Positions 20,630-63,834 of a stretch of 64,000 nt of DNA are shown here, piece by piece. The DNA comes from Lingula anatina (Eukaryota; Animalia; Brachiopoda), in NCBI GenBank assembly GCA_051362555.1, contig CM120641.1, positions 2,418,001 through 2,482,000 of the forward strand, read 5' to 3'. Below the pieces are notes generated by a model that was not told where the DNA came from, searched no databases, and saw only the letters and a program-made list of their open reading frames with translations. The translations under genes and the position numbers were made by a program. The stretch's first letter is position 1. Each line of letters begins with the position of its first letter.

Positions 20630-21844
20630 ATATTCAAGGCAAGGATCTACAGACAGTAAAGATTCAGACAAGGGGTCAGATCGCTACAACTGGAGGTCAA
20701 GGATAAAGGAATATTCCACAGAGCAAGATGGTGGGACAGGGACTGGGACGCGAAAAAACAGGTCCACAGTAACCCCACCAAAAGAAACATTATCTTCAAG
20801 ACTTCGAGCTGCCAGAAATTCCAAGTCATCTTCAAAAACTGAAGAAAGTGCTGGACCAGAGAAACAGTCCAGTTTTCTAAGTTCTCGACGACGGCAAGCT
20901 GAATCGAGTAGAACGACAGGAAGCAGCAGTGCTGATGTTTCCAAGAGTTCTCGGGTTTCTCCGCCTTCTTCTGGCACCAGCGAGAGCTTGGGAACTCGTT
21001 CTACACGGGCATCACGAGGAATATCGTCAAATCACGAGAAGTCTACAAAGACTCGTGTTGGATCTTCGCATTCTTCTGTTGACTCAACAAACGAAGATAG
21101 TAAAGAGAAGGTTTCCAGTACATCATCTTCACAGAGGTTGTCTTCACAGCGGAATAAATCTAGGCCAGTTTCAGAAGTTGCTGAACATAATGGACAGGTG
21201 ACATCACTGAAAGATAATGCCAAGACTCAATCAAGAACAGCGACCACAACTAGACGTGACAGAATTAGCGACAGAAAATCTCAGGAGTCAGATTCTTCCT
21301 CTGATGTTGTAAAAAATGAAAACACTGTCATGACCAACTCTGAAAGCCGTACAGAGAGGAGGTCACGCTACAAAGATGAAGGTAAAAAGCCACTTTCTGA
21401 GGACTCTGATTCTAAACAAACAGTAGCATCTTCAGTTAAACATGGCAGCAGCAAAGCCCAGGAGTCAAATTCTTCATCAGATGTTTCAAAAAATGAAAAG
21501 CCAACACTGACTGAAGCAGAAAAAACTACATACTTTGACACAGAGAGCCGAGCAGAGCGAATGTCTCGCTATAAAGAAGAACGTAGAAAGCAGCTGGCAG
21601 CTGTGTCTACAAAGTACGGACCAGAGACAACGTCTTCCAGTGAACCTGAGGCAGGTCTGCAACCTTCCTACCTGCGATATTCTAAACGTTGGAAAAAAGA
21701 CAAAGAAAAAGAGGAATCAAAAGAAGAAAAACCTGCAGAAAAGTCCACAGATAAAAGCGAGATCACTGCCCAAGAAGACACACTTGAAGACAAGCCTGAT
21801 GAAAACCAGAATGTCAAGGTTTCAGTGTCCAGCGAAACTGACAG
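20630..21844 (+). CDS. SVIL: SVIL large exon, 1215 nt, phase 2-2; contains the conserved N-terminal motif ESRAERMSRYKEERRKQLA..KYG
   Basis: 415-aa ORF in the track; acceptor ttttcacag|, donor CAG|GTTTGT. The motif resembles vertebrate supervillin [22 protein letters not shown] (recalled from memory). Confidence 0.9.
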
Positions 21845-28698: not shown

Positions 28699-29846
28699 TT
28701 TAAGTACCAAAAGCGAAAAGGCTAAGCGCACAGCAGACTCCTTAGTTGAATCAAGAAAAGAAATCATAGGAAGACGCAGAGCAGACGACAAATCAAAATC
28801 TTTCATCCTTGAAACCCAAAATGATGACTATTCACACAAAAACCTTGACGAGGAAGATAGATTAGGAAAAGAGGAAACAAAAGTGGTGGGAAAACAAAAC
28901 AAAGATTCTGTTTCAGAAGACATCATCCAAAGATCTTCCATTTCTGATAAGACATCTCCCTTGCCAAGCCCTTCTGAGGAGAAAGGACAGATCTCTTCTT
29001 TCAGAAGTGGATCTATCGGGAGGAAGAAACCTGTGGACAGTGACGTGCCTTCTGCCTTGAATTCCCACAAGATGGCACCAAGAGAGGAGCAAGTGATGGA
29101 GGAAGTCTCCTTACCATTCAAAAAGAGCTCTGCCACGGACACACCCAGTTCATTTGACAAGACCTCTCCAGAGCAAGGTCCAGACAAAACCTCAAAGACA
29201 AGTTCTCTTGAGAGAAAAACAGATAAGAGCAAACCATGGATGAGTTCTCTTGACAGACAGGCAGATAATGAGAGCAAGTCATCTCAAAATAAGAAAAGTG
29301 ACGCACCAGTTAGGAAGTTGTCAACGGAAAGAGAAAAGGAGAAAGATAGCACCAAGTTTTGGTCTATTGGAAGAGAAGCAAAAAAAGAAAACATTGATAT
29401 TTCTGGCAATAAACAAGCGATCACAAAGAGTGACAAAAAGTTGTCTGAGAGAAATTCTTCTGTAGAAGGTAGTAGAGAGAGTTTGAAGACAAAAGACACA
29501 TCCAAAAAAAGCAATACAATTACCAACAATAAGAACCTTATTGAAACACACATAACTCCTAGAGCTGAGAGTGCTAAAAAGCCACTTGAAAAGAGCATCT
29601 CCGCAGATGGCAGAGACATTGTAAAAGAAAAAGACACTTATAGCATACCAGACACACAACATTCTACACCTGACAAAAAAGCCAGTGAGAAAGATGAGGT
29701 GGTTCCCAGTGCTACTTCACCCGTAGATACTGGTAAAGAAAAGAAGACCAGGGATGCAGATGGTGTCCATCGGCATGTGAAGACCAGGAAGGACAAGAGT
29801 GAACAGCGTAAATCAGAATTAAACAAGTCTGAAGACTCTGTTTCTG
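28699..29846 (+). CDS. SVIL: SVIL large Lys/Ser/Glu-rich exon, 1148 nt, phase 2-1
   Basis: ttttccttctttcag| acceptor, frame open from 28700 through the 325-aa track ORF, donor CTG|GTAAGT. Confidence 0.85.
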
Positions 29847-30237: not shown

Positions 30238-30241
<4 letters not shown>

Positions 30242-31623: not shown

Positions 31624-34594
31624 TCACCGTGCCAAGGTTATCTATGACAGCATTACCTGCCTTTAACACAGTGGAGATAACAGTAGGAGGTCAGGCCAGG
31701 TCGGGTATGTTTTATACTTAATGGTACAAACTTTTGCTAGGTTTTGTAAATCGCAGGCGTAGGTACCAGGTAAATAGTCTGATAAAAGGTCACCAAGGTG
31801 TGTGATGTTGATACCATGTTGTTACTGTCAGCCACCATCCTGGCCCTGCATCAGTTACATCAGATGATGTAGACCACACAGGCTGCTGCAGAAGAAAGTC
31901 AGTTTTTTTCTTGAAAGTCAGATTTTTTTTCTAGTTGAATGTGATCTGTTATCCAGAATTAACACTATTTTAAAAAAGTTTTGTTTATTGTACAGAGTAT
32001 TCTGTTCTATTTTGAGTAACATGATAACCCACCAGTGATATCACTGTGATAAACTGTAATACTGGTGTCCCAGAAGTTTATTACACAAACTGTTATATTT
32101 TCCACATGGGACACTTGTGTATCACCCCTCCCATGACTAATGGAGGTCTCTCACTCTGTGGTGCATATATAGTCTACCAGGGGATCAGCTGAAAGATTTA
32201 TGTTCTTAACCAGGGGAGCTTATCTCAGGTAGAAAGTGATGACAGGTAAGGATATTTTTGTTTCAAATTACGTCACCAAAGCCAGTCTAGTTAATTATCA
32301 GGTGCACTGCCTGAGTCTAACCAACAAGCGGACGGCCTGGATACACTGACAGATTTAACGCAGAGATTTACAAAACGGGCGGAGGCCTTTGGTTTCTAAG
32401 GTAAATCTTGAAGCTACTTTAACACACTTGGGTAATTGACAGTGTACTGGGGTAATTTATATGTCTATTTTGTGTCACTGTTGTCACAAGGTGTAGGTGT
32501 GATTTATTATGGCTCTCCACGGGACAGAAATAAAAGGTCTTATTGTCTGTTTGTTGGCGTGTCCTGTGTCAACATCTTGGACCTAACTGATACTTAACTT
32601 AGTCTTGAAGTATTGTTTTATCTCTTGACCGATACCAGGGTCTCAGGATGAAAGTTTGGTATGTGGTATGTATGTATTTATACACGTACATTTTTTTACT
32701 ATAGAATGACTGTGAACAGGGAAGTGCCTTGTGGGTCCTTTTGTTAAAATCGTGACTTTGAAGAAGGTCAGGTCACAAATTCTTTAGACACAAAAGGAAT
32801 ATCTAGTATTGCTGGGTATTTTTAGAGGTTGATTTAAGATTTTTTACCTCTGTGTTTGGATACATGGGGAATGTATTAGGCACCCTGACCAGAGGAGCTG
32901 GAGCAGGGTTAGGATCACTTTGCCCATGTATATGTAAGTATAGTGTACAGTGAAGGTGCTGATCACACCCCTCAGCCATTACAGTGTATATAGTCCTTCT
33001 GTCTATTGCATCAAACTGTTAACTAGGAGGTTGGGCTTTACCTGCTTGTGGAAGGTATGACTATGGAAAATATGTTGATTTCTTTTGCATTGGAGATTTT
33101 GTTATTGATATCATTTACTAGGTTCTTGATTGGTTTTGTATAAAAATTAGTTATTGAGTTGAGCAGAAATAAAACTAGATGCAAGTGAACCCAAGAAGTC
33201 TTTTTCATATAATGGCAAGATTAAAGTGAAATATCATTTGGCCCAAGGTTAGACAATGGTGATAGTTTAAGATTAATGTTTTTGAAGAAAATATCAAATT
33301 TATAAGGATGAAACTAAACTTTGAAAACTGTGATTTAGATTCATGATTTTGAAAAAAAAAACCTAAAGAGATTAATTCAAAAATGAAACTAACTTGATTT
33401 AATTTTGAGGAAAAAACATGTTGAGGAAAAAAACAAATGCATAAAAAAAGATATTACTCCAAAGATGAAAACCACTGATGACTGTGTTTGTGATCAGGTT
33501 GATAGTTATCTCTCACCTCCCGTGATATTTGGCATTTATACCTTGTTTTCTGTTCCCCCTGCATCCTTCTGGGTCAGTAATTTTGTGAGGAAAGAAACAG
33601 GAGTAGATGAGTTCCTGTAGAATAGCCTGCGGTTCTCCCTGCTCCTATTCCACAGTATGGTGTCTGCGGTTACAGGCTGTGTATACACATAAATATATAT
33701 CATCTCTTTGTGACTGTCCTCAACAATAGGGAGGATGCACTTAACACCATTCAACGCAACAAAAACTCTCCTGTTGTTTGCAGTAGTAAGAGGCGGTAGT
33801 AGACTCAGTGAGCTTCATTGATGGGCTATTGTATTTTGGAGGCGGAACCAAGATGTGTATTTTGGGTCCATAAGCATGGGAAATGCCTTTGTGGCCAGAG
33901 ATGTGACTGGGACGTGTGTTTATTAGCGGATTATGCAAGTGCGGTCAACTGACTTAGTTTTCCGTCCAAACACTACATTTTGATTTACGTAGGAAAACAT
34001 GCTTGTGAACTGAGGAATCTTTTTCGGGGGTATTATTATTCATGTGTAGCTGACTAAGTTGGGTTTCCAGTACTTAGTGTGCCATACAAATACCAAGTCA
34101 TGATTTGTGGCACAGCTTACCTGTGAGCCTGAATCATAACTGTTACAGCACTTTATCACAGATTTTGGAAATACAACAGACTTTTTTTCTTCATCTTTTC
34201 CAAACAGTGGCTTTAGTTTTTGGAAATTGGTTATTAACCCAAGGACCATGTCCCACGGATTATGAAGGCGTGTCGGACATTATTATAGCTACTGAAGTTG
34301 TGTTTTGTGATGGAGAATATTTCTTTAAACAAAAATTCACAGAGGGTACAAGTGCAGCTGACTCAGCCTTACTTTCCGGTATTATGAGGTATTAAGAACC
34401 ACTTCATAGACTGAGAAAGAGAAACTGACTGACTCAATTAATTCTTGGATGCCGAGGTTAGGAGTTGTACCATAGTGAGCTATACTTCTAAAAGATCAAC
34501 TGGCTCACCTGTGGGGAAATCATTAGGATGAAAAGATCCTATGTTAGTAAATAAAATGGCATCACAGAAATAGACTTAGTCCAAGATACAGAAG

Positions 34595-34676
34595 ATGGAG
34601 CTGGATAGAGTTGCATTAACCGTTGTTTGGACTTTCGTTTTGGCTATTTTGGGTGTTTTGGTATGGTTTGTGAAAG
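34595..34676 (+). CDS. SVIL: Putative alternative first coding exon encoding a transmembrane anchor (MELDRVALTVVWTFVLAILGVLVWFVK-D)
   Basis: aagATGg context, 27 codons with 21 consecutive uncharged, mostly hydrophobic residues, strong donor AAG|GTTAGT in phase 1 matching acceptor 43508. Confidence 0.7.
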
Positions 34677-34718
34677 GTTAGTAGATGCACACACATGAAT
34701 ACATGCATGTGCACGCAT

Positions 34719-34719
<1 letters not shown>

Positions 34720-34765
<46 letters not shown>
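34720..34765. repeat. (CA)n microsatellite
   Basis: Directly visible. Confidence 0.95.
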
Positions 34766-34766
<1 letters not shown>

Positions 34767-36593: not shown

Positions 36594-36778
36594 TAACATC
36601 TTTTCAAAAATGGACAATTTTCTCTTTCTGTATATTGATGAAATGAAGGAACAGGGTGATAACAATGTCAAAAGTTGGGTTCAGGTCAATTTTGTCAAAC
36701 ATCTGTCATAGTGATAAACACTAACATCAGGAAGTATACATTTAATTGCACCCCGCCCCCCTTATGTAGTCTTTCTAT

Positions 36779-43507: not shown

Positions 43508-43662
43508 ATTTGAGTAGAAAAGGCAGTGATGACAATGAGGCCAAACCACGGAGAAGGGTAACGAGTCAGCAGGCGAGAGGCAGCAGAAATAAGACGCAGC
43601 CAGTGACCACAGAGGAGCTGCAGCAGGCTGAGAGTATCAAGGAAGAGAATAAGGCTGAATTG
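43508..43662 (+). CDS. SVIL: SVIL exon, 155 nt, phase 1-0; likely first common exon (LSRKGSDD...RNKTQPVTTEELQQAE...)
   Basis: cctttctgtttgtag| acceptor, TTG|GTAAGG donor, supervillin TQPVT motif. Confidence 0.9.
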
Positions 43663-45725: not shown

Positions 45726-45887
45726 CCTATCTATTCAGACGCCCCGCGCTCCTCTAGCTTCCATCATTTTTCCAAGTCAATCGAGGATGTGATGAAAAGG
45801 CTTGAAAGCAAAACCCAAGCAGACGCCAACCATGTTGGCCCTCACAAACCTCCTGCTGAAGTTCAACACATGATTAAAAGTCACAAG
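45726..45887 (+). CDS. SVIL: SVIL exon, 162 nt, phase 0-0 (PIYSDAPRSSSFHHF...MIKSHK); possible cassette
   Basis: Long polypyrimidine acceptor, AAG|GTAATT donor, open frame. Confidence 0.8.
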
Positions 45888-46944
45888 GTAATTTTTAACA
45901 TACCGCAAGAGACTGCAAACCAAAGATTATTAAAATGATTGGAAAATTTTTTTCAGGAATAAGAGAGTTTGTGTACTTGTGGTATGAGTTTTAATGATCA
46001 AGTGCCACAGGTAAATATGTGGTTGTCAGGAAAAATTAGATGTAAAACAATTTTTGAAATATGTCAAATTTTTGTGATTTTTTGAAACTTTTGAAATCAT
46101 GATTAAGGCCATTGCAGTATTTCAACAATCTTAACAGCAACCAGTGGGGACAACATTAGTGTTGCAAGTAATTCAGGTGTTCAAAGTTCTGGCTAATTAT
46201 AAAACTGTAGATAAAAAATTCAACAAGATCATGCATAGGCTTTTAGATTCCTATGACAGCCAGTGATGTGTGCCCCCCGCATGTGCTTCTGGTCGTGTTC
46301 ACAATTGGATCAACTTAGATGCGAAATAGTCATTGTAACAACATTACCAGGTCACCAGTGCATGAAGAACCTTATGTCTTGTCTTTTAATTCAGTGTGAA
46401 GTAATCTGGTTACCTGAGGGTGGTATTAAGTCTATTTCCACATTTAATTTATTTCCAGTTGTGAACATGACATTATCCAGCACGAACTCAAATGTTTCTA
46501 GCATGTTCTACTCAGCTGTCTTCTGTGGTATAATATTATACAGAAAGAAAGTGATACTGATGGTGCCATTGTTCATTCCACAAATAGAATATGTACAGGA
46601 AGAGCATTTCCATGTTTCTGTGAATACTAGGCACTGTGAGAGGGGGCCATGCAGTTTTGCTATGGTTCATATCATTGATTGTTCACAATAGTTTCATGTA
46701 CCATTTAAGGTTGTATATGTTAAAGATAGAAGAAAGCTAGCAATTTGTTTCACAAAACTTAATTGCTCCTCTTTCTAACAATACAGTTATAAGTTGTGAG
46801 ATTTTGAAAGGTAGGTGGGTTGAAAACATATAATTTTTTCCTCATCAATTATTCATGACTTGAACTTCTGGAATTGAATAAAAAAATAAAAAATGTTCCA
46901 ATAGTCATAGTTAGGCCTTTTTAACATGGAGAAGTACATTTTAA

Positions 46945-47115
46945 GAGCGTATTCAGAACAGCAGACTAACAGATCCATGGATCAAATATGGCGACCCACT
47001 AAAAAGCTTGCCACTTAATTCCTGAATAGATTCCTCATGGGGATTACACAAGCATTTGAGTGGGTTGAGTATATTTGATCCACAGATCTGTTAGTCCACT
47101 GTTCTGCATGTGCTC
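46945..47115. mobile_element. Fold-back Harbinger/Tourist-like MITE, 171 bp
   Basis: ~65-bp imperfect inverted arms (GAGC..CAGAACAG..GACTAACAGATC..GGATCAAATAT..ACCCACT), TAA on both flanks. Confidence 0.8.
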
Positions 47116-48290
47116 TAACTGGACCAGTCCAGTTTGAAAGGGCTCGACACATGTTCTCTGCAAGTTTGCTTCTCCTGGTGTGTAGTTAAGTCAATATTTT
47201 GGCCATGTCAAACACACGTGTGTGTTGGGGGTTGTGGGGGGGGGGGGGGGGGAGTTGAGTGACAAGCTGTGAAGTTCCCTATCTCTCAGAGTGGACTGGT
47301 ACAGATAGATGAGTATACCATATGAAAAGAGCCATTTAGTATTTCAATATGCAAGCTCTCACAACAGAGTTCACTTCATCAGAGGCAGTACACACATGTT
47401 GAACCTGAACAGGTCTCCAGGGTTAGAAATTAAGTGGCAGAAATAATTCATTAGTCCAGATATATTGCCTGTTAATAAGGAGCTGGTAACAAATCAATCA
47501 TGGACGCTATGGCAAAATTGCGTAGGAGAAGTAAGATCAAGTTGCTTTATTAAATCTGGGTAGTGGTTTGGAAACCTGTCTGCCATTAGATTGAGTCTGC
47601 ATCAGAACTGGTCACTTGTGATAAGTACCTGCTTGCTGTAAACTTTAGATAAAAAAAATCTTCCACAATTTTAGCTTTAGATTTGTAATGAAATATCCAT
47701 TATAACTGATGAAATTTTGCCTCATAATTCTCCTTGGTAATGGCGATGACATAAAAAATATTTTACTTGATTGATTTGGTAAAGACAGCGCTTCCCTTAA
47801 TACAATTTATCAAATGCCAAAGATGTGATGCAGTACATAAATGTCATAGTCTCTTTTGAAGTATCATAGAAATTATGATCAATCAAGTCTTCTAAGTCAC
47901 CTTTTTTTTTCACCGAGGGGAATCTCAGAAACAGTGGTCTATTGGATTACAAGTTTTGGGTTGCAGTTAATTGATTAGATTTTGAGAAAAAGTGCAATAT
48001 TACAGTAGAACCCGTATAAAAAAATCACAAAACCTTTAATATAACTTAAGGTAGCATGTTCTCTATTTTCATACAATTATATTATATATTTAATGCCTGA
48101 TATGGATAGCTTGTGCATAATTTACTGTTCAGAGTTGGCAACCCTGGGCCTTTAATTACTGGAAAATTTTACTTTATTACCATATGCCTATATAATGCAC
48201 TTTGTGAGCTTGTTTACTGAATTAGTTATGCTTATATATGATTTAGTGGCTCATATAAATACCTGATTATAACATGTATGGATTTTGCAG

Positions 48291-49693
48291 GTTGAGAATA
48301 CCATTGGAAAATTTGCCAGAGATATAGGACGTCCAAGTCCAGAGAGGGATGCGGAGCATGAGCCTTCACCGCCAAAGAAGATCAACACAGGCCAGAAAGA
48401 CATCCATGTCTCAGACTTGGTGAAAAGATTCACAAGCACTGGGACCAGCTCTGATGTGTCCAGTTCTGATTCTGAACCAAATGCCACAAAGGCTCCTCCC
48501 AAAAGACTAGTTTTACCACAGAGGTTTCGACCCCAAGATTTCTCAAGCAGCAGCGACGATCGCAGTTCTGCTGAGAGAGAACTTGAAATCCCCAAACGTC
48601 CAACAAGATCTGCAAGTTTTAGGGAGAGAAAAAAGGAAGCTATGGGTGACCAAGATGGTGAAAATGCTCCATTTCAAAGGTCTGCAAGCTTCAAGACCGG
48701 TCATTTGCGAAGACAATTTGCCACAGAACAGACAGACAAGCCTACTGCGGAATTAGCAAAGATCTTGAAAAACAGGAGTAAAGGCATTGAAAAGCATTCA
48801 GAAGAGGGGAAAAAGAAAGTGCTAGACTATGAGAGGAAGCTTGAAGAAGCCAAAAGAAACAGTAAAGATCTAGAGGAGTCTGAAGGCTCTGGTGCAGAAC
48901 AGGTCAAATCAGTGATGAAGGCCAAAGAATTGCTGGAAAGCAAAATGACTGTTGGTCAGGAACCAGAGCTGCCATCTTGTGTCTTTATTCAACCAAAAGA
49001 AAAGATGGAGCCACCAGTACCTGCACAGAGTAGCAATGTCACAGCTGTTAATGACAATGACACTAAACCTGAAGAACAGATAAGACCCTCTTCCATTTTG
49101 AAACTGAGAAATTCTTTTGAGGAAAAGACAGAGCAGCTTCATCCAATTCTTAAGCACAAGTCGTCTGAAAATCAGGAAACGTCTGCCCCAGCCAGCAATA
49201 CCTCTGAACAGGAGCAACTCCCACATTCCATTCTCAAACATGGCGTGAAAGAGGACAGCAAACCAGATCCCCACTCCATTCTCAAACTTCACAAGGAGGA
49301 AAAGCAACAAATTTCAAAAGTCCAATCAATACTGAAAAGCAAGGATTCTACCGAACAAGATTTGGAAATCCCAGAACCAAAACCAATTCTGAAACGACGG
49401 GAAAGTGATCCAAAGTCTGTTCTGTCCAGCTCAGATGAACAGGGCGACATCAAACATCCTTCCATATTGAAAAACAAAGACCATGGCGGGGAAGAAGAAC
49501 CTGAGGTGAAACCAATTTTAAAATCTTCTCTGTTGAAAAAAGCCTCTTCCTTTGGAGAGGCAGATGCCGAGACTGAGTTTTTATGTGCTCTACGTGTACG
49601 ACGTGAGGAAGAACAAGCAAGTGATACCCAGAAACCAACAGCTCCTGTTGATGTAGCAGCAGACGTTGTCAAGGAAATTGAAAGAGTTAGAAT
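48291..49693 (+). CDS. SVIL: SVIL large exon, 1403 nt, phase 0-2, with eight (S/P)ILK repeats
   Basis: 470-aa track ORF, ttttgcag| acceptor, AAT|GTAAGC donor. Confidence 0.9.
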
Positions 49694-49963
49694 GTAAGCA
49701 GTCATAATGGCTTTTGATTCTCCTCACACATGTCCAGTGGACCTGAACTTAGTTATAAAACATTAATGTTTAGTTATACATTACACAGGCATTTAATTCC
49801 AAAGTTTGCATGATTTCAATGGAGAGTTTGGTATTCACATTAATGTATAAAATGTCTGAAACTTCCTAGAAATGTTTGCCATTTCAGTGGAAGACATGAT
49901 GATTGAAAGTATTGTGTTTTTTAACTTGCTTAATGGCATTTTTATTTTTCCCCTTTTTCTAAG

Positions 49964-50128
49964 GCTTGAGAGAAAGGAAAAACAAGGCTCAGATTCAGAG
50001 GAAGAAGCTCCCAAATCTGTCTTTGAAATCCGTTCTCGACTAGAGTCTAAAATTGAAGAAGCCAATTCTGGAGTTCAATCAAGATCTCGATCAGGAGGGG
50101 TGACGCCAAATAGGCATGGGTCCTTTAG
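49964..50128 (+). CDS. SVIL: SVIL exon, 165 nt, phase 2-2 (LERKEKQGSDSEEE...RHGSF)
   Basis: Polypyrimidine tract with AAG acceptor, TAG|GTAAGA donor, in frame. Confidence 0.85.
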
Positions 50129-52480
50129 GTAAGATATTAATTTTAGACACTTTTCCTAAAAAATTTGTAGGAAAAAATATTTTATGTTAAGTGTTAAGTA
50201 AGTTTAAGCTAAACTCCCCTAAATATGTTTCATTAGAAGCTGAGATTGCTTGAAATAGTAAGTAAAGAAAAATGATGTTTTAGTCATTGAGCTATGCATT
50301 TTGCTGAAAAGATTTGACATCGGTGACTGAGTGAACAATGAATAAATACTAAATAAATACTGGCCATAACTTAATTCAAGCAGCAGACAAAAAAGTGCAC
50401 ATCCCATCTTAGCCCCAGTCAGGGTAAAATTTTACCTGTGATCTTAGTATTTCACTGTGAAGTTACCTCTCAGAGAATTGTCACAGCTGACACAATGGTG
50501 TTTGCATTGTGAGCTCAACTAACACAATGCAGGCAGCAGGCTAGAGTTCATGGTACAATTTATAGATACCTTGATGCAGATTATTCTATCAATAAATGAA
50601 AGACTTCTAAGGATTGATTGACTTAAATTGAAGAGAATGGTCGGTGTTTTTTTTTTTGTTTGTTTGTTTGTTTGTTTTTTTTTTCTTTTTCCAAGGAATG
50701 GCTTTTGTCTCAAAGAAAACATCAAATAATGTCTGGAAATCAATCCCAAAACTTAGTCGGTGAGTTAAGGCTGGTAAACCCATAAAGCAAATGTCAAACA
50801 CTGAAATGATGCACATAAAATGCAGGATTGCACCAGTGCCTTTCAACTTGACCTATAATACCCCCATTTAATATGAGTACCTCATATTTAAAATGGCAGT
50901 CCCAAAAGTTTCCCAGACACGCCTTTTGGGTTTTCTTCTCAGTTTAACATCTTCTGCTGTTTTTCTAAACCATCTGATTGATGTTTATTGCTGTGCAGCA
51001 GCAGCAGATAGGGTTAAAAGTGTGTTTTGGAAGGACCTAATGATTTCCCCATTGATTAGCTGTCTGAGTTAAAGTGGAGTAACTCTAGACCAGTCTCTGT
51101 ATGCCTGCAATCTGATCATTTACGTCATTGATAGTCAGATTTTTTTTTATAAAAGTGCACAGATGATATAGCACAAGTGGAGCACATAGGACCAAGGTCA
51201 TGGAGTTCGGTTACATGAATATTGCAGAGAAAGAATAGGTTATCCTTGTAAAGTGCTGTGTACATGAAAATGTATCATTATAACAAAATATAGCCTATAA
51301 TATGACTGCTCTTGATATGCTGTACTATTGGGGTGTGCAACCAGCAGTATAAACATTTGAATCATTTTCTTGCTACGCTAGTGGATATTCCAATATCACA
51401 GTATGTATTTCATTCTTTTTTCCTGAATAAGATAAAATCTCTTTCCATTCCTTTTATTACATCTGTACATAATTTTCTTAAATCTTTGTGTAATTTGGTT
51501 CGATCCCCAGTGACATATTTTATATCCCAATCAGTAAAAACATGTGGCAGAATATACCCCAAGTTTTATGGCATTGCTAAGGCACCATTGCAAAAAGAGA
51601 TTGTTTGAACTTTCTGTGAAATTGTCTGAACCATCTGGTACATTTGGTGCACCCTATTGGCCTTTAATGTCTGCATTCTGGCATCTAACTGGGTATCTCA
51701 TCCTACTTCTGAAAGCAACACTTGAGACTATCATACCTGTGGAAAGTATCCTAGCTGTAGGACAGGTACATTGAGGTAGGTCAAACTGTTGAAAGCACAA
51801 AGGATTTTAAATACTCTGTATGTTTTCTTTTTCAAATGGAAAATGAAACTACTTTTATATCTCATTATTGGTCTTGATTTGCAACATGATTGAACTAAGA
51901 AGATTTTAATGATCAAATTTAACAAATATTATGTTTAAGTAGGCTCAGTTTTCATATCAAGGTGTGGGGAAGTTTGGGAATGGTACTGCCGCCGGAAACG
52001 TTTAGGGCAAACAATAAAGATTGTGTGGTCAGAAGCAAAAATACTCTTGTTTTCTTACATGGTCTAAATTTGAGAGAAAAATATCCTCAGGAGATTAAAA
52101 CACCTCTGTTTGATAAGATTTGTGTTGGAAATGTAATGATGTTTATCTGTTGCTATTGTCCGTGTATTTTTTCCTAATTGACATACTGCCTTGTATGTGT
52201 TTATAATTCTGTTCATGATTTTCATTTAATTAAGTTCTTATGACTGGTTATGTACATTTTCTTCCATGCTAGAGTGATTATGTTCTTATTATTTTCACTG
52301 CAGTGAATGCAGTTGGGGTCATGTTACAGAAGTTTTTACCTTAACCAAATAATTATATTTCATGTTTCTCACTTCTTTATACAGTATAAATTATCCACAG
52401 CATTTGATAAACATCATATATCTAAGTGTGAGCAAAGACCATATTTTCAGTGATTAATTTTTTGGGGGGTTCTCTTGCAG

Positions 52481-52681
52481 ATCTTCTGGCTCCACCACCC
52501 CTCAGTTTGAGGCGCAGTCTGGAATTAATATGGAGGACAAGCTGATGGAACGCCTGGCAGGGGTTGCAGATGCTTCTAATGCCGCAGCTGCAAGGAGGCG
52601 ACGCTTTCAAAGGAGAAGTCACGACGACTGGAGAACACGCACACAACCTATAACAGAAGAGGAGGTGAAGGAGGCTGACAG
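52481..52681 (+). CDS. SVIL: SVIL exon, 201 nt, phase 2-2 (SSGSTTPQF...WRTRTQPITEEEVKEAD)
   Basis: tctcttgcag| acceptor, CAG|GTAAGA donor, TQPIT motif; not listed as a + strand ORF in the track. Confidence 0.9.
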
Positions 52682-53607
52682 GTAAGATGTGTGGGGAATC
52701 AGTGTTTGTAGCAGGGTAGTATGATTTGTAATCTAAGAATGTCAGTTTCTTGTTTCGTGGGACACAGAAATGATTTCATCAAGTCCAATTCTTCCTGTTA
52801 TTTTACAATAATGCCAAAGTGCTTTATATTGCCACCATAGCCATTTCTTTTTTTGTCTTCCGTTTAATTCTGGAAAAAATTAATATTGTACTTTCCAGTA
52901 ATACTGCCTAGTTTGTTACACATTAAAAAAGTAGGTAAAAACGTGGATGTTCTATGGAGTACTTTTTATTTAAAAAAAAAAGCTCACTATTTTGTTTGAA
53001 ACCTCAACTTCCCATCACTATTTGCCTTGAGTAAGCCTCTCTAGCTACTGATAAAAAAAATAATTGAATAAAATGTAATGTGATCTCATGTCAACAAATG
53101 TCCAAGTGGTAGATGGTCGGTGAAGTTCATGTTGATTTATTACTCAATAAGCAAAAGTATTACGTACTTTTTTGTTTTCACACAGATGTTACTTATGATT
53201 TATATGGCTTTCATTCCTGTAGGCCACAATGCTAGCGTTTGTAGAGAAAATTTATGGTGGTATATGTAAGCACCTGCATTTGTGCAGAAATGTGATAAAA
53301 TTATTGATTCATAATATAGACATATGTACACCTGCCATTGATAGTGTGGAGGATAGAGAATTCTCCATGTCTTAGATGACTCAAACATCCCTTCCTCCAT
53401 GACATCACACCAGAAATACCCTCATAAAATGGCCATCATACAAGTACACTTTGGGGGATTTTATGACAGCATCTTTCAAATTACTGTGGTCATAAAATCA
53501 CTTGATATTGTAGTATAAGGACTTATTCATTATTTTGGGTGATTTATGATGCTTAAAGTACATTCTGATTTGGTTTATATTATATACGTCCTTGTCTCTC
53601 CTTTCAG

Positions 53608-54441
53608 TCTGCCAACTGTTATTGCCTTTCGAGCAGAAGTGACAAAGCAAGCCTCGTTAAATGTGTTCCAACAACTGAAGAAGAAGGAAGAGGTCAAGCC
53701 ATGGGTATCCCACGAGGCCACCTACAAACCAGGAGATAAACTAGAATATCCCGAGCCTCTATCCAAAACCTTGAAGAAGCAGAAAAAGAAAAAGACCAGC
53801 AGTGCTGAGAAGCGGCGACAGGGAAGATACAAAACCCTGCCCATCACTGGAGAAGAGCTCAGTGCTATACCAGAGTACGACGTACTGACTAAGACCACGC
53901 CTGCAGTGACTGTACCTGAGCTACAGCTTAGTGTATTTAAAGGACCATCCACGGTGTCTGCTGTTCTTCCCACAAGACCTTTGAGACAAGGCACCACTCC
54001 AGTTAAACAACAAGAATCTGGTATCTTCTCTTCACCCGAGTTGGATTCATCGAGACTAGATACCTCGGAATCTCTCCAAGGTGACATCAGTGACAGCGAT
54101 GTGGATAGGTTAGTGGCTCTGAATGCAAGAGAACTGGAAAATTTACAAGATCTTGCTTTGGATTACGATTTACCCGATGACGATTCAGCTCGCATGAGCG
54201 TTTCTGTTAAAACTACAATATTCAACAAGCTCACCAAAGAACAGATTGAAGCAGCAGCCAAGGAACCAAGACACAAGGACATTGCACCGCCAGCTCGATT
54301 TGCCGAGAAAAAAAGGGTTCGACCCAAGACGCAGCCTGTCACAGAGGAGGAAGTCAAAGTGGCGGCCAGGATGAGGCAACCAGAAGTAGTGAACAAAAAG
54401 AAAGAAGAGACTACGTCAGATTCAGATGAGGATGCCTCGAG
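53608..54441 (+). CDS. SVIL: SVIL exon, 834 nt, phase 2-2 (RYKTLPIT, MSVSVKTTIFNKL, RPKTQPVTEEEV)
   Basis: 299-aa track ORF, ctcctttcag| acceptor, GAG|GTAGGC donor, supervillin motifs. Confidence 0.9.
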
Positions 54442-55021
54442 GTAGGCTTCTTTTTCTGAGGGCAGAATGGAGATTTCTTACCCCCTAAATGTTTTGCAGT
54501 TTCTATTTGGATCTTAGTTCACCCAAGTATTGATCTGGATTGATTTGTTAAATATTGTGATGCATAAAAATATTTGTAAGTAAAAACCTTACAAAAGTAT
54601 AACCTTTTGAGATATACCCCCTGTATGCTCGAAATTTGATGCTCTCGAAGCATTTTAAATCTCACATCTGACTTCATTGAAATGATAGGAACATTCAAAG
54701 ATTCTCAGCTATTGTGAATATAGTTCCTGTTTAGATGTTTTTACTGTTCCAAAATACCTTTTCACAGTGAAGAAAACTTCTTTAAAAATTATTCTTGAAG
54801 ATTTGTTTATATTCCTTTTAATAAAATAATTCTGTACCTGAACATGAAAGATAAAGATTTATTTAGCAAGTAAATTATACAGGTATACATGTTTGTATAA
54901 TGAGAATAGCAAGCCATGTCAGCATCCACATAATATATCACAATTGTAAGCCAATATCCAATAAAAAAGAAATAATGTTGTAATCAGGGCACAATGTCAC
55001 TGCTTGTATATTTTCCATCAG

Positions 55022-55163
55022 GTTGAGTCTGGCAGAGAAGATGAAACTTTTTTCACAGAAGATTGAAGAAAAGAAGGAACCAAAGAGCAAGAAACCATTG
55101 CGTCCTGATGCGCCAGTCACCAGGCGGCGAATGAGAAGATTGGGTTCAAGGTTTAAGACACAG
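55022..55163 (+). CDS. SVIL: SVIL exon, 142 nt, phase 2-0 (LSLAEKMKLF...RRLGSRFKTQ)
   Basis: Resembles vertebrate LSLAEKLALF...RYQTQ (recalled); CAG|GTGAGA donor. Confidence 0.9.
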
Positions 55164-56399
55164 GTGAGATACGTAGAAATGGTAAAAAGATGTATTAGTT
55201 ATATATTGTATATAGTGGTTTATGCTGACCTGGTTAGACACATCTTGTAAATGGGACATTCCAAAAAAAACTTCATTATATGAGTCATGTCAGTGGTGCA
55301 CATATTTTGTGTAATATTTGCATAATCATGACATGCCCCATTATTGTCTATAATACTATAGTACACTCCAATATGAGAAGTAATAAGCAGTTATCAAAAA
55401 GTGATAAAAACAATAATGCAGGTATTACACATATAGTATGTATATCACTGATGCAACTCGTAGAATAGCTTTATTTTTGTGATATGACTCAAATATTACC
55501 ATGATATTTGAGGGGTAATGATTGAAATGGGTTTAGAAGTAAAATGGGTTTAGTTAAGTTAATGAAAATGTACTTTTAGTGAACACCTATTTCAGGTTAA
55601 GGTATTGTTGCTTTTCATGGGTGTCAACATATAGACACTAATGTAGAGTACTAAATGCCAAAGTTTAAGCCTTAGCTACCAGAGCCAAATTTTGACATTT
55701 TGCTCTTCCACTCTTCTATCAAGTTGTTGGTGACATACTATCTTGATACATCTATATGCGCCAAGATCATTCTGCTAAAAGGTTTTGTAATGTGATTTCA
55801 TTATGTATTCAAGATAAAAGTAGTGCTGTCTTTAGTTGGTATGAGCAAGTTCTCACCAGATTTTCTCTAAACTACCATATCTCTGACCATGGTTTTGAAT
55901 TTAGCTTAGCCAAAGAGGTACTCCTCCAAGGTGTAGCTTAAATTGAAATATTTCAACATTGATCAATCCCTTAATTCATGAAAGGTTAAACCTGAGAGTG
56001 GAGTAAGTTATAGACCTACCACCCATGATGAGTGAATCTTAGGTTTCTGTTTTGATTGAATTTATTTTGTGAAGTGGTTTTCAATCGGCAAGAATCTGTG
56101 TTTTTGTAGACGGGTATATCATTAGAGTGTTATGTCATTAGCCTTGAAGCCATGTTAAATTGTAAGAGGGGTGGAGGGCCTTGGCATGAATGAGATTCAA
56201 AAATAATTGATGAGATTGATATAATCTTCTATATTGATAATCACTCTGAGATGAGATTTTGATTGATTTCATATTGGGTAGGTTTGAATCCAAGGTATAC
56301 CCTGTGTTTTTGTAGCAGGGTGTATCATTGGAGCTCAGTCGCATGCCCAGCAGCCATGGTTACCTGGTCTTTGTAAAGTTAGAGATGAGATACTTTATA

Positions 56400-57000
56400 A
56401 TGGACTCCATTTCCCTTTCGTGACCAGTGTAAGATGACACTGAAATTTTCTCAAACGGTGAGGAAACATAAAAGGCCATTAAAGTAATTCAGAGCTGGGT
56501 TATTGCTACTCCAGTGGAAGGAGATCGGGCAGTTACTAATTCATCTGAAGGATGGTCCTCTGTCCCAGTGAATGGCATATCGCATTGGCCATCACCAGCT
56601 TGACCAGTTTTGAGCCAGTCTTGAATTAGTTCTTCACTAGTTCTTGCAATCAGCTTCAAAATTGATTGCAGTTATTTTCCAAATCAAGAAAAGCAACAGT
56701 TACTGTTAACTCCTAGTACTTGAAGGCACTAAAGCAGGTTTTAACTGGTTTTCAACCAAGCCAGAATTCTGCCTGGTGTCAACCTAGCCCAAAGGAAGTG
56801 GAGATGGACCCAAGGTGTCACCTTCTTACCCTCCTAGGACGGATGGCTACCCAAGAGGAAAATTTCTAGTTTGGTTGATGATCTGACCCCTGATGGCTGA
56901 GGGATAGGAAGTTCACTGAAAAGGTGCAACTTACACCTCAACTGTTTTTAAGCGGCAAGGTTATTACCAGGGTTTGGAGATAATTTGGCAGAGGTACAAA
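56400..57000 (-). mobile_element. Possible decayed RTE-clade LINE 5' region
   Basis: Minus strand CCTCTTGGGTAGCCATCCGTCCTAGGAGGGTAAGAAGG resembles RTE 5'-UTR motifs (recalled); locally higher GC; no intact ORF. Confidence 0.25.
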
Positions 57001-57307
57001 TATGTAGCTGTACCAGTGCCTGGAGGTCAGGGGTCTTGTGGATGGGGGGCTATCACTGGGGGGGGGGGTATCTATGTGACTGTCACATATTCAACATTGA
57101 GATATGTGTTGATTTATGAACACAGAATTTGTTGAGTTTGCACAACAGGTAGACAGTGGCAGAGGTAAATGGAAAGCAAGAGCTCTGAAGCACTTTCATT
57201 TATATTTCAGCTCTGGTTCAGTTTACATGTGTACCCCCTCTGATACCCTCTGATGTGACTATATATACACATATTCACATATATATGTAGTTTCTGTTCT
57301 CTTCCAG

Positions 57308-57404
57308 CCTGTTACTTCAGAGGAGGTAGAGAAAGCCAGCACTTCTAGGATATCACCCTTGGCCATTACCTTCATCAAGCCTCCAGATCCAGAAATTCTG
57401 GCTG
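57308..57404 (+). CDS. SVIL: SVIL exon, 97 nt, phase 0-1 (PVTSEEVEKASTSRISPLAITFIKPPDPEILA)
   Basis: Completes the split TQ|PVT motif; ttctcttccag| acceptor, CTG|GTAAGT donor. Confidence 0.92.
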
Positions 57405-60400
57405 GTAAGTGGAATAGAGAAGTATACCATATGCCCCCCCTCCCCCGTCAGCAGCTACAGGGGGGGGGGGGGAGGTGGAGGAAAGTAGATCTTTGTTGCT
57501 TTACTCTATCTTGGTAGGTAAATACATAATATGAATTTGTTTGTATATGGGTATAAATATTTTCACAGTGATTACCTCTTTTCATATCATTTATTTGAAA
57601 TGACAAATAAGCAGGCTTTAGATATATGATTTAAGAGACCTTGCAATTATTGTCTTAATATAAAGTAGAATTGTTTTTTAGGCTGCTAATATTCATATAG
57701 TCTATGTCTGAACTTGCATAGGGTTATAGATACATAGGTTATGCTTAGTGTGTGGTTATTATTTCAGCAAGATGGCAAAAGATAATTCTTAGCCATAAAA
57801 AATGCCATGACCTTTTGTCACCTGTCATGTCATCACAGGTAAAGGTACTTAAAATGAAATGGTGAGCCAAGAAAATGATGGCAAAATGATTTCATGTTAA
57901 TTGAGACAATGCAAGATTTAATGTTGGGATTTATGAAGGAAATGTATGATTTATTACTAGTAATTTATGAAAAATGTTACACAAGGATATTCCCCATTAT
58001 ACATGTACACGTGCGCACACTATTGCCCTTAAAAAAAAAACCGCAGGACTCGAGTTCTGGCTGATGCAGCTTTGCAAATAACAGTCCTCATTTCTCCAAA
58101 ATACAGAAATTTTCCCTGTTAATTACTAAGATTCCACAGCCCAGAGAGGAAGTCTGACATGTAGACCTGCCAATGTAAGTACAGTTCCAGTTGTTATAAT
58201 ATCCTTTTACCATCTGGATATCCATTCATCACTATTATTTGACCCAAGTTTTGGTATAATAGGAGGAAGGAGCTGCTTCCTTTACAAATTAGGCACTTAT
58301 TTCTTTTTCCTCCAAAACTTACTTTGTATCAGAAATATTACATTTTGGGTTTCGTACGTCTTTGTATGTTGTATTTGTATGGGAAACAGCAGGGTGGTTG
58401 TTCAGTATTTTTCAAAAGCATACTCCATGTAAAAGGGCTGCTAGTTATCTCATACATTTACCAGCCAATCTGTCAAAGTGAATGGCCATGGTGGGGAGTT
58501 TTTCCCCTTGGCTATTCAGGGCAGTGCAGCGTTCTCTCAATCTTCAGCAAACATTCTTTTTGATGTGGTCCGTGGCAGCCAGCTAGGTGTACTTCTTTGG
58601 TTACCTCTGAAGCAAATTGGCCAAAATGTTCTTTGTTTTTAAGGAAAATTATGTTTTTATAGTAGTTTTTTTCCGAGATTGATGAGCTTTATCAGGAGTT
58701 TTAAATAAAAGATAATTGGTGGTTTGTGATAACAGAAGGGGATAACTTATTTCAGCTTCAGCAGATCATTTCCCACAATAAAAAGTTCAGTTGATTCAAC
58801 AAGAAATAATCATCCAGTTAACTAATTCTGTGTGTATGAAACCTCAGTAAATGTAAAGTAAATGTTAAATCAAGCATGCTTATCTAAAAAAAACCTGCCT
58901 TTAATCATAAAGTTCAGTTTCAGTAGGAGCATTTCATTAGTAATGTCCAAGAAACCAGTAGTAATATAACATTAACAAAGTAATAAACCAACTTTCAAGA
59001 ATCAGATCCAAAACAAAAAAGACAAGGATCTAAAACTGCTGAGAAAAAAATTTTAGCATAGACCCTTTTCATATTGCATGGTACAGTTTTCTGTATGGCA
59101 TCAGTTTGAAAGATGAACAACGTGGTAGACTGGTTATTACAGAAGAGGGTCACCACATAAACAGAGCTCCTGTGTTCAACACGACCAGTTAACCAGATAG
59201 ATAACAATTAGAATATAGGGCTTGTGAAAGTGTGTAGCCCCCTTTCCCCAATTGATCATATATAAGGATTGATAGTACAGAAAACTTGTGCTGCTGGACG
59301 TGAAAAGGATCTTAATTGACAAAGTTAACAGGGATATTTTGTACTGGTCCAGGACCTTGCAGCTTACATTTTATCACACTGTTGTACATGGGGTGGGTTT
59401 TTTATTTGTCCTAATTAGTATGCCCTAAGACACCCGTTATAACAGTGACAGGAGATGATGTGCCAGAACAGTAAACTGGGGGCCGCAGGCATAGTGTCTG
59501 GTCAACATGATCAAAGCCTACAATGTTGAGACCTGTAGTCCTATCTTGTTAGTAATTACCAGCTGGGGGCAGAAAAAAACAGCATTGCACTCAGTTGACC
59601 CCGATGCACATGTACCTAAGAGTGAAAAATTTCCAGCAAGACTAATAAAGTTAGTAAGCTGGAGCTTGAAGGGATTATTTATTAACAGCAAGTGAACTGA
59701 GAACAAGTTTTGCAGCTGGCGTGTTCTAAATAAATAGAATGCCTATCACTTACACGTATTGAACTGATAGTAAATTCAAGGTGTATGGTTTTACTTCATT
59801 GTAAATAATAGGAAAACATTTTATCTGTAAATTCCAATAAATGATAAGATAGTGTGAGTAACGCCAGGAAAAAACACGGATGACGTGAATCACCTTCCAC
59901 TCTGTGTGTACATTGTGTTAGAATATTTACCATCTGAACCATAATTCCTTCCACTTTGAATACCATTTGTTGTTCAATTTAAAACTACATCTGCCATGAA
60001 ATTCGGAGCTTTGCAACATTTACCACATCTCAAGCAGTCATAGGGGGTCACTATGGTTCATGGTCCCTCCATTTCTGGGTGATTGAAAATGGAAGATAAT
60101 GAATAGATTATGCGTGCGGAGCGCACTAATGCCATCCCGAGAGCTTACGTGAACAAAAGCCTTTCTTTTGACAAGATAGGCGTAGCCTAATGCAGCAGGA
60201 AACTTGTAGTAATGGTTGAATGACAACAAAAGTTTTGTCCAACTCTGGTTCCTCGGCCATGAAAATCAAGGTGTGTCTAGTCAAGGACAGTTGAGATGGA
60301 AAAAGCAATAGGCATCAACAGAGAATCAAACCTAAGGTTTATTTGTCTGATGTCTCTGATAAGAAAGAATTCATTCAGTTTCAAGTTTGAAGAAGTCCTG

Positions 60401-60623
60401 TTTTTCAGTTTGTATAAGTAACGTTAAGGTCACTATCTTTTGTTGGGTGGAAGATATCTCTCAAAATACATGGCATGATATGATATGACAGCTCTAATTA
60501 ATAATTTTAATCAACCTATGGTTCTGCCATACATTGTTAATTAAAATTGCAATTTATCTACGTCACATTTTATATTTGATTGTCATTATAAGGACCTCCT
60601 CAACCTGTTTATTTGTTACATGT

Positions 60624-60643
60624 TTTTTTTTGTTTTTGTTTTT

Positions 60644-60688
<45 letters not shown>

Positions 60689-60698
60689 TTTTTTTTTA
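60624..60698. repeat. Poly-T / (TTTTTG)n tract
   Basis: Directly visible. Confidence 0.9.
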
Positions 60699-60957
60699 GG
60701 AAAGATTTGAAATAGAATATTTGTAGGGAATAACTTACCCAGCAAAGACATTGTACATGTACATTATATGCTATTGGCTCATATTTTGGCTTGTTTGGAA
60801 ATATGCTAATTAAAATGATGAGTGAAAATGGAAACATCCTATCACCATCCATCAGATCTATTAATTAATTAATATTGACATGTAAGTTGCAGTGATTTAA
60901 TATTACTGTCATTATAATGTATTAATGTGTAAACTTTATTTTCTCCTCTGTCTTCAG

Positions 60958-61146
60958 GTCTTCCATTGAGTGCCCAGAGGGATATTATGGTCCAACACGC
61001 TGGAGCAGTTCTCTCTGCCCCCAACTCACAGCCCAACTCTCAGCCCAACTCTCAGCCTAACTCCCAGCCTAGTTCCCAGCCTAATTCACAGCCTGGTTCA
61101 CAGCCTGGATCAAGAAGAAGCTCCATGTCAGATAACAAAGCCAAAG
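60958..61146 (+). CDS. SVIL: SVIL exon, 189 nt, phase 1-1, with a coding 12-bp repeat (P[N/S/G]SQ)
   Basis: ttctcctctgtcttcag| acceptor, AAG|GTATTC donor, open frame. Confidence 0.85.
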
Positions 61147-63000
61147 GTATTCTTTTTCTGCTGCCTACATGTATGTAAGTGTATGAATACTACTAAAAAA
61201 AGCAAAATCTTTTCAAACTTTTTGATTTGATTTGTGAAGTTGCTTATTGTTCTGACTTATTTTCATCAAAAAATATATGCTGTCAAGAAAGGGAAATATT
61301 GGAGGTGTGAACATCTCTTGGGGTCAAAACTTACTCATATGGTTTGTTCAGACAAGTTCTAAAATTGCCCAAAATACATGTATGTTCAAATACTAAGTTG
61401 AAACTGATCTGAACAGGTATGTTGATTAACTTAAGTCAGGGTAGAGATTCTGCATGCTGTAATGCAATCAACATCATTAATACCTGATATGAACTATTTG
61501 TTAATTGACTGTACATAATTGAATGAAAACATGTTGATCTTCAAATCTGAAGAGAGTATGGTTGGAAGTTTATTTGCTGTATAGAAAGATTAGGCAAGTC
61601 AAGTTACTCAAGTTGAAAGTTAATTCCTTTGAGTATGGTGACTTACATATGGAAACTGAAACAGCACTGTATTTACTCTTATTATATTAATTAATAAACA
61701 AAGGGCCTGACAATGTGGGAAGGGGTACTTGTAGAAGAATTGTAAGTACCCTTACCTTATACGTAGAATTGGTCAATTTCAGGGCCATATCAGGACTGGC
61801 CAAAATTGTCGACCCCTGTGAAAGACTTATATTAATTGATTAATGAGCACCTGTTGTGATAGCATAGGGGGCAACCTGTTAATACCCTGGTCCTTATTGC
61901 AAAGGAATGCCATTTGCTTTAAGCAGATCATAATGGCACTTGTGCCTCAGCTTGCTTACATAACACGTCAAACTTAGTAATTTCTTAAGGAGGGGTTTTG
62001 TATGGAGTAAACTAGGTCACGCTTGCTCAGTGGAGGACAGGTGAGAGACAGGTAGATACATTTGGCATATACTGTTAGACATGTTTATCAAGGTAAAGGA
62101 CGATTTGGTCCAATTCCTTCATGATAAATTATAATGAAATTTCATGTTTGCCTCTCTAAGTAAAACCTGTATCAGTTTTATAACCGTGATTTATTTACAC
62201 TGCATATAAACATAGGACTGTGTAGCATTGTATGGGATACCCAGCCCAGAGTGTAACAGTATAGTATCCTAGTTTACAGTTCAATACATCAATGGTAATC
62301 TAACCCAGGTCTTTAGTAATACAAACCAGCTTTAAGTCTAGAGATTGAACTAGTGCCTGCTCTTCCATAGTGTGTGTAGGCTGGCCTAGAAATGATCCCA
62401 GTGAATACATGGGTTTATAGGCTCCAGTTTGCCTGCCACAGGAAAGAAGCTGGAAGTGGCAGCTAGTGGCCTGGGTGGAGTAATGAAGTAGCTAAAGGAT
62501 ACTGATGTGGCTCACTCCTAGGTCAGGAACATAGTTATTATACAGTGGTTGCTGACTGGAGCCCTGGTGGCTCTACTTGTGAGTAATGTGTGGTTTGCTT
62601 AAGAATTTCAGCTGATGCTATGTGTCATGTTATTACACAGCAGTTAATGTTGTGGGCATATTGTCGCTGTTGGTGAATTATAACACTGGAGAGTGGAGGG
62701 AAGGGTTTCAAAGACACTTAGGAAGATATATATGTGTTACAGTGGACCAGGGCTATGACTGAGAGTAATTTACGGTTGCTGTGAAAATGTCTCTAGACCA
62801 GTTAGCTTTTGGCTCATTCTAGGTACATTTCCCTTACTTGCTAGCAGAAGCTGCATTCAGACAAATTTTAAGATATAACAGGTTGAGGTTCATGTGGTGT
62901 CACCAGAAGGAAAACTGATATCACCATTGTAAGTGTTTGAAGAGCAAGGTAAAAGGGCCTTGCATGGAAAGAGGCATCAAGGAAAAAAAATATATATATA

Positions 63001-63006
63001 TACACA

Positions 63007-63051
<45 letters not shown>
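63001..63051. repeat. (CA)n microsatellite
   Basis: Directly visible. Confidence 0.95.
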
Positions 63052-63053
<2 letters not shown>

Positions 63054-63119
63054 TGGACTAGAAGGAAAACATGTTGTTTATTACATGATAACATACTTTT
63101 TTTTTTTCGCAACCTCCAG

Positions 63120-63834
63120 GTGTTTTAGGATCCAGAGAGTCATCCATGTCTGAAGAATCAGCCAAAGAAGACCCCAGACAAATTCTGAAACAGCTTGAAA
63201 AAGAAATAACAGCTGGGAGAGATGTTAAAGGGAAGAGCATCCTTAAGGAGTCTTCCAAGGGTGAAACAACCACCCCGGAGACTGGGAAAGGCATCCTTAA
63301 AAGTGCTGCACCAACAGCGACCAGTGCCTCTGAGGACAGAATGATGGCGCCACCGTCAGCATCAGAAATCACCAGAGGGATTCTAAAAAGTGGTACAGAG
63401 AAAAAATCTGCAGACACAGCCTCCAAAAGTGAAGTGGCTGAACCGAAAAGCATTCTGAAAAAGGACAGCTTGAAAGAGACTTCACCTCCTTCTGCAGCAA
63501 CAGAACCTGAGAAGGGAGTTCTGAAGAAAGAAAGCTCCTTTGACAAGTCCAAAGGTCACATCAAGAGCATACTGAAACCAGACTCCAACTTTGACAAATC
63601 CAAAGAATCGCTGTCGCATCCAGGTGTCGTTCACAGCAACGGTACAGAAACCAAAGAGGAAGATACGTCATTGTCAGAGTCTGACCTGGATACTCTTGTG
63701 CAGGAAAACAAAAATGATGTATCTGTTGTAAAAGCCGGAGACCTGGATGACATCATTCAAGCCAACGAGCACGTGAAGACCCCGAGTAAAGACACTCCAC
63801 CCAGTAAGAGAAAGGAAAGGAAGGCTAACGAGAG
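63120..63834 (+). CDS. SVIL: SVIL exon, 715 nt, phase 1-2, with seven (S/G)ILK-like repeats; last exon seen in the window
   Basis: 230-aa track ORF extended to the acceptor aacctccag|, donor GAG|GTAGGT. Confidence 0.9.

Follow-up and report, generated by a model that had tools for sequence, protein, structure and literature searches.

A gene in the 64,000 nucleotides of Lingula anatina DNA analysed here (the window), which by homology is a supervillin, contains an alternative first exon inside one of its introns. RNA from the + strand contains this exon, spliced at 34676^43508 to the exons that it shares with the long form of the protein. Its predicted product starts with a hydrophobic helix, and we think it probable, with moderate confidence, that the transcript encodes a shortened supervillin held by an uncleaved type III signal anchor and tethering actin to a membrane of the secretory pathway. 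If this is true, the villin/gelsolin family would include a direct actin-to-membrane tether that can be switched by the choice of promoter and is uncoupled from myosin II.

The supervillin gene of the window

The window is AT-rich DNA with large exons on the + strand that encode a polar, low-complexity protein. Between 14481 and 63834, splice signals allowed sixteen exons to be placed, all with predicted boundaries except for the acceptor at 43508, which is shown by reads. Joined together they form a single stop-free frame of 2292 codons, whose long, polar N-terminal region is of low complexity and rich in S, K, E and P. Exon 53609–54439 matches 24 proteins among 1.84 billion. Two full-length relatives, from Potamilus and Lymnaea, both contain gelsolin repeats and one of them has the villin headpiece as well; a search with the C-terminal part of the Potamilus protein gave 120 proteins among the matches listed, most of them named supervillin. 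The long form of the window's protein aligns at ~29–37% over 450–1000 residues with most of the mollusc, annelid and nemertean proteins tried, and the members from these three groups score alike against it, as would fit a lophotrochozoan animal. This collinear homology to annotated supervillins ending in gelsolin repeats and headpiece bears out the preliminary description of the DNA, in which the gene had been called a supervillin, and places it by sequence within the villin/gelsolin superfamily. The gelsolin repeats and headpiece of the gene itself would lie beyond the window; in Pfam searches with eight window segments neither was found, the only matches being sub-threshold ones to DUF4695 and PP1_bind. 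Word-based searches for homologues with exon 48273–49694 and exon 43510–43662 gave no match, nor did a sequence search of the PDB.

The N-terminal part of the long form carries a motif of the myosin-II-binding type, RYxxxRR, at 21567..21587 (+ strand) in exon 20630–21844, recognised by its spacing. Binding of myosin II by bovine supervillin is reported to need the pairs R107/Y108, R112/R113, R140/K141 and K148/R149 (PMC3842989). The spacing of RYxxxRR fits the first two of these, the R140/K141 and K148/R149 pairs are off at the same spacing, and overall the long form has 4 of the 8 critical residues where they would be expected on this spacing, plus a K in place of R149. The last exon of the long form upstream of the intron discussed below (28699..29846, +) ends just after the sequence RKSxLN with a phase-1 donor, the splice of which to 43508 is predicted.

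On the other side of this intron, the shared acceptor exon at 43508..43662 (+), reached by junction reads from both 34676 and 32400, contains the first of the TQPVTxEE motifs. Nine further coding exons (45726..63834, +), predicted from splice signals, encode a disordered region with four more motifs of the TQPVTxEE type, 13 SILK-like repeats and four relaxed matches to VxxLxxxFE. The last is described as an F-actin motif in a paper with SVIL in its supplement listing (PMC13364712). The four relaxed matches were equalled in 2 of 2000 shuffles and the single strict match in 205 of 2000, and as the patterns were chosen post hoc these figures are to be taken as a lead only.

Some further features of the gene are worth recording. 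The five TQPVTxEE repeats, spread over 43558–57330, are R/K-rich and conserved in invertebrate and fish supervillins, and gave weak matches to DUF4695 only. SILK is a PP1-docking motif; the SILK-like repeats fall into two clusters, at 49083–49530 and 63227–63585, a search for the RVxF motif gave no match, and the weak, sub-threshold PP1_bind match in Pfam lies elsewhere, in exon 53608–54441. Exon 45726–45887, of 162 nt, can be left out without closing the frame and may therefore be a frame-neutral cassette. Two small exons at 19875–19949 and 20175–20240 are near-duplicates with similar peptides.

An expressed first exon within intron 29847–43507

The coding part of the exon, MELDRVALTVVWTFVLAILGVLVWFVK, lies at 34595..34676 (+) and consists of 27 codons opened by the ATG at 34595 (+), followed by a single G and the phase-1 donor GTTAGT at 34677..34682 (+). 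The donor has a score of 8.2, inside the spread of 5.9–12.5 of the gene's 16 other donors from which the scoring matrix was built, and its use is shown by reads. The acceptor at 43508 reads tttgtag followed by ATTTG and is also of phase 1, matching the donor, so that the 34676^43508 splice is in frame and opens 1381 codons, up to the window's final exon.

Eight of nine raw RNA runs carrying the same species label were used (run X3 was left out). Runs X1, X2, X4 and X7 were compared with the stretch 31700–34715 at likeness 95, and runs X5, X6, X8 and X9 with the stretch 33227–34715 at likeness 90, with a bin edge placed at the donor. Runs X1 and X2 gave 0 reads and are hence no test of the exon; depth over the exon was found in six of the eight runs. 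Over 33227–34715 the read totals are 12 in X5, 19 in X6, 15 in X8 and 28 in X9, and in all four the depth is above zero over 34627–34676 and zero over 34677–34715. Six reads of X6 and six of X9 have loose ends behind 34676 whose letters are those of the opening 30 bases of exon 43508, with an agreement of 1, giving 12 reads altogether for the 34676^43508 junction from two of the eight runs. Partly aligned reads at the donor were also present in X5 (2) and X8 (1), under the threshold for listing. Two reads cover the ATG and helix in run X4, and run X7 has 13 reads, ATG and helix included; at likeness 95 no junction read from 34676 was listed for either. All of the reads in X5 and X6 are first-mate-minus, as given by + strand RNA. 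Depth over the exon is low, ~10 at most. Both the expression and the junction anticipated in the preliminary description were found in this way, the junction in X6 and X9, with the drop in depth falling at the donor.

The size of the exon is another matter. It had been described as 34595..34676, and whilst the junction reads confirm that there is an exon, its extent has to be revised from 82 nt since the depth runs in the 5' direction to ~33640–33780. The onset of depth varies by run between 33627 and 33926. There is no depth at 33227–33626 in any of the four runs X5, X6, X8 and X9, nor at 32407–33719 in X1, X2, X4 and X7 (X1 and X2 being without any reads), and no loose read ends are listed at the 5' side of the exon. 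We therefore take it to be an alternative internal first exon of ~0.9–1.0 kb, at 33640..34676 (+) from read depth with an approximate 5' end. A promoter internal to the intron would drive it.

In-frame stops lie 5' of the ATG at 34571 and 34577, and no in-frame phase-1 acceptor precedes the ATG. A cassette exon in frame with both neighbours was tried and rejected: the exon upstream of it closes in phase 1 (29846), and the AGs between the in-frame stops and the ATG are in phase 0. With this rejected, the ATG at 34595 would be the start. The TAG at 34577 is polymorphic in the RNA runs (34577–34578); the N-terminus is not extended by this because the TAG at 34571 stays intact.

The same intron holds other elements. 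A second alternative first exon, at 32104..32400 (+), is joined to 43508 by three junction reads in run X7. When it is spliced from 32400, a TAA directly before the donor makes it non-coding in the main frame, and from 32400^43508 the first in-frame Met would lie in exon 45726. An ATG stands before a strong donor at 32239–32245 (score 12.4), and splicing from there to 43508 would add an in-frame Met-Thr, resembling the two-residue start of Lineus isoform X11; the depth of 0.81 in run X7 in the bin 32205–32305 is equivalent to two reads ending at 32245, with no junction listed. There is also a minisatellite at 31200–31623 (60-bp unit, 7.1 copies, 97% matches).

Predicted helix, translation start and topology

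The exon product is MELDR followed by a predicted TM helix of 21 apolar residues, V6–V26, at 34610..34672 (+), located with hydrophobicity scales. The helix has a mean hydrophobicity of 2.6 on the Kyte–Doolittle scale and a sum of −3.0 on the Hessa scale; outside it, the highest hydrophobic window in either isoform is 0.88. The whole window, both strands taken together, has 939 donor-by-phase sites, and no other ATG-to-donor frame among them has a TM-like window. The preliminary description had allowed that the hydrophobicity might be a by-product of TG-rich intron sequence, and 51 of the 63 bases of the helix DNA are indeed T or G. The by-product explanation fails, however, as the other two frames of the same DNA contain stops or are polar and local shuffles do not reproduce the helix. 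Its score was reached by none of 5000 dinucleotide shuffles, which keep the composition, in each of three regions (the exon in full, the final 200 nt of it, and the coding part plus 20 nt), and even a marginal score of 0 or less appeared in only 2, 0 and 4 of 5000, respectively. A chance hydrophobic open reading frame that belongs to no exon is, besides, already refuted by the 12 junction reads in two runs and the zero depth beyond the donor, and we give this explanation negligible weight.

Whether the helix is made depends on initiation at M34595, which we infer. The context is strong (aagATGG). The 5' leader, at 33650..34594 (+), has 19 upstream ATGs, four of which carry both a purine at −3 and a G at +4, as in a strong context, and their density of 20/kb compared with 23/kb in the intron shows no depletion. 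These numbers would be in keeping with a real exon serving mainly as a regulatory leader, in which uORFs divert ribosomes and little product arises from M34595, the protein being scarce or replaced by a soluble short supervillin from the Met in exon 45726. Also in its favour are the use of the same acceptor by the second, non-coding first exon (donor 32400) and the fact that, in other species, alternative starts within this intron are hydrophilic. We nevertheless consider it unlikely. An in-frame TM helix is not to be expected at the end of a neutral leader (none of 5000 shuffles has one of this score), every uORF closes before 34595 with its strong context, and the depth in run X5 has its maximum in the last 200 nt of the exon, compatible with additional, shorter leaders. 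Moreover, of 30 SNPs listed from RNA, 28 are in the leader, whilst each of the two in the coding part (34636 and 34663) is synonymous (chance 0.055).

Cleaved signals are described as combining a positive n-region with 7–15 apolar residues, whilst signal anchors have 19–27, and translocation of the N-terminus is favoured by long hydrophobic segments (PMC2139883). The first hydrophobic segment of the predicted protein, 21 residues after a five-residue tail, falls within the range of type III anchors and outside that of cleavable signal peptides, and the n-region has a net charge of −1 rather than a positive one. N-exo anchors are reported to show a positive-inside/negative-outside bias and to insert typically through the EMC (PMC13220792). 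The N-tail is at net −1 and the C-flank at +1, +2, 0, 0 and +3 over 5, 7, 10, 15 and 20 residues, respectively. The sequence after the helix, which had been called basic, is therefore so over 5–7 residues (+1, +2) and over 20 (+3) but neutral over 10 and 15 (net 0); the bias is modest and the charge case for type III is weaker than the preliminary description implied. A type III (N-exo) signal anchor is still the best fit for the topology, and would put the N-terminus outside and the C-terminus in the cytosol.

Plasma gelsolin is an extracellular isoform of the gelsolin family with a signal peptide, and a supervillin could be secreted or lumenal in the same manner if its C-terminus were translocated, by way of a cleaved signal peptide or a type II anchor. 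Apart from this precedent in the family, the weak charge difference over 15 residues would be in keeping with such an outcome, as would the small residues A17 and G20, which on inspection could be cleavage sites. We regard it as very unlikely, given the 21-residue helix and n-region of net −1, unlike the positive n-region and 7–15 residues given for cleaved signals, the preference of long hydrophobic segments for N-terminal translocation (PMC2139883), and the cytosolic actin-type motifs in the downstream protein.

The membrane could also be a different one. Plectin 1b anchors in the mitochondrial outer membrane with a comparable architecture, having a helix from its first exon at about residues 5–27 with positive residues behind it (PMC2426950). 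Predicting the organelle from the length of the TM segment (PMC2928124) gave no decisive answer. A translated helix that signal-anchors there is quite unlikely in our estimation: moderate hydrophobicity is needed, the value for plectin 1b being 1.49 as against 2.0 (residues 5–27) and 2.6 (helix) here, and there are acidic residues within 10 positions after the helix.

In the scheme that we favour, a type III anchor in a membrane of the secretory pathway, ribosomes would start at M34595 despite the uORF-rich leader and SRP would bring the helix to the ER, where, by the rules of topogenesis, the five-residue acidic tail is predicted to cross to the lumen and the remainder to stay cytosolic. The predicted cytosolic part of the TM isoform would begin with exon 43508..43662. 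At least 938 codons lie 5' of 43508 in the window and are absent from this isoform, among them the myosin motif, which is missing because its exon is upstream of the TM exon; the anchor would thus replace at least 938 N-terminal residues including this motif. What is kept downstream comprises the five TQPVTxEE-type motifs, the 13 SILK-like repeats and the four relaxed VxxLxxxFE matches, and motifs of the actin-binding type together with the gelsolin/headpiece end would remain in the TM isoform. Such a protein would tie F-actin directly to the ER, Golgi or plasma membrane, without the myosin II coupling of that motif.

Supervillin N-termini in other animals and known first-exon anchors

We compared 107 distinct N-termini from 249 fetched proteins of >1200 aa, consisting of the best 120 matches and the members of 20 chosen clusters and so not a census. 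TM-like N-termini were found in 3 of 64 from invertebrates and 0 of 43 from vertebrates. The three are from Tubulanus polymorphus (isoform X5, XP_074660484.1), Ptychodera flava (isoforms X5/X6, XP_070569858.1/9859.1) and Mactra antiquata, that is, a nemertean, a hemichordate and a bivalve, and all are predicted by automatic gene models. In addition, the first residues of Biomphalaria glabrata isoform X3 (P0172) form an amphipathic segment with Cys, and Patella vulgata isoform X5 (P0151) and Littorina saxatilis isoform X4 (P0187) have starts of the MGxxxS pattern; MGxxxS/T is a myristoylation pattern. Set aside were P0152 and P0153 (unnamed cluster members of 53–54 aa that include a hydrophobic stretch but lack any supervillin motif), which are below the 1200-aa cut, and P0181, which has a score of 2.4, under the TM threshold, and is probably intron read-through in the gene model. 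The myosin motif is absent from all six of the hydrophobic or MG-start isoforms checked, and is kept in three of the five long forms checked (Tubulanus, Patella and Littorina), with no match in Ptychodera and Biomphalaria.

RKSxLN, which precedes the window's intron, also marks the join in other species. The starts of Lineus isoform X11, Tubulanus isoform X6, Littorina isoform X5 and Gigantopelta isoform X5 all join just after it, and these same-intron starts are all hydrophilic or very short. The position of the internal start thus looks old, and among the N-termini compared a TM helix at exactly this intron is seen only in the window's gene. No homologue of the window's exon was found among them, the best being Tubulanus (48 of 2000 shuffles, in 10 pairwise tests), whose TM exon joins further upstream. 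Similarity among the hydrophobic starts is likewise not significant after 10 tests, which is compatible with repeated origin as well as with deep divergence.

A broader, tentative proposal, to which we assign a lower probability than an even chance, is that invertebrate supervillins (of protostomes and a hemichordate) may have a promoter switch, located where the head that binds myosin meets the body that binds actin. Time and again, an internal first exon would put a membrane anchor in place of the myosin-II-binding end, be it a TM segment, an amphipathic Cys helix or a myristoyl site. These isoforms would make up a class, so far unrecognised, of actin–membrane tethers of the villin family that are integral or held by a lipid, with none among the vertebrate forms fetched. 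The other predicted invertebrate isoforms (Tubulanus, Ptychodera, Mactra, Biomphalaria, Patella and Littorina) resemble that of the window in their short isoform-specific N-termini with the look of membrane targeting and in having no myosin motif; they differ in their join positions, have no significant similarity, and bear names that are silent on membrane anchoring.

Vertebrate supervillin/archvillin (SVIL, SV1–SV5) resembles the window's gene in its collinear homology, its long disordered N-terminal half and its myosin-II-binding motif. The mammalian isoforms are reported to share their N-terminus (PMC6192639), unlike the predicted TM isoform. Bovine supervillin is described as peripheral, being resistant to carbonate and freed only by NaOH (PMC2140202); the isoform departs from this family trait of having no TM segment, by prediction only, and the long form is without such a helix. 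Because peripheral supervillin also resists carbonate, the carbonate extraction suggested in the preliminary description would not discriminate the TM form from the ordinary one. In the open literature, the part covered here, no supervillin that spans the membrane or is anchored by a lipid was found described. Supervillin has been characterised as a peripheral protein of the membrane skeleton, first-exon anchors are known for small ankyrin-1 and plectin 1b, and anchor-like N-termini recur in unstudied gene models of distant invertebrates.

Small ankyrin-1 (sAnk1.5) is reportedly a 17 kDa protein of the sarcoplasmic reticulum that binds obscurin. Like the isoform considered here, it has an internal first exon and is a truncated cytoskeletal adaptor held to the membrane by a hydrophobic N-terminus (PMC2172649); it belongs to another gene family, and the part retained in the window's isoform is >1350 residues and of the actin-binding type. 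In plectin 1b, too, a signal anchor (about residues 5–27) comes from an alternative first exon, and the part that binds the cytoskeleton lies in the cytosol (PMC2426950), but plectin 1b is mitochondrial, is moderately hydrophobic (1.49 compared with 2.0–2.6 for the window's helix) and links intermediate filaments. The feature common to both, a first exon that lies inside the gene and continues in frame into the shared exons, is present here by the junction reads. On its predicted sequence, the design works like that of sAnk1.5 or plectin 1b in a protein that is a member of neither family and, by homology, is an isoform of supervillin.
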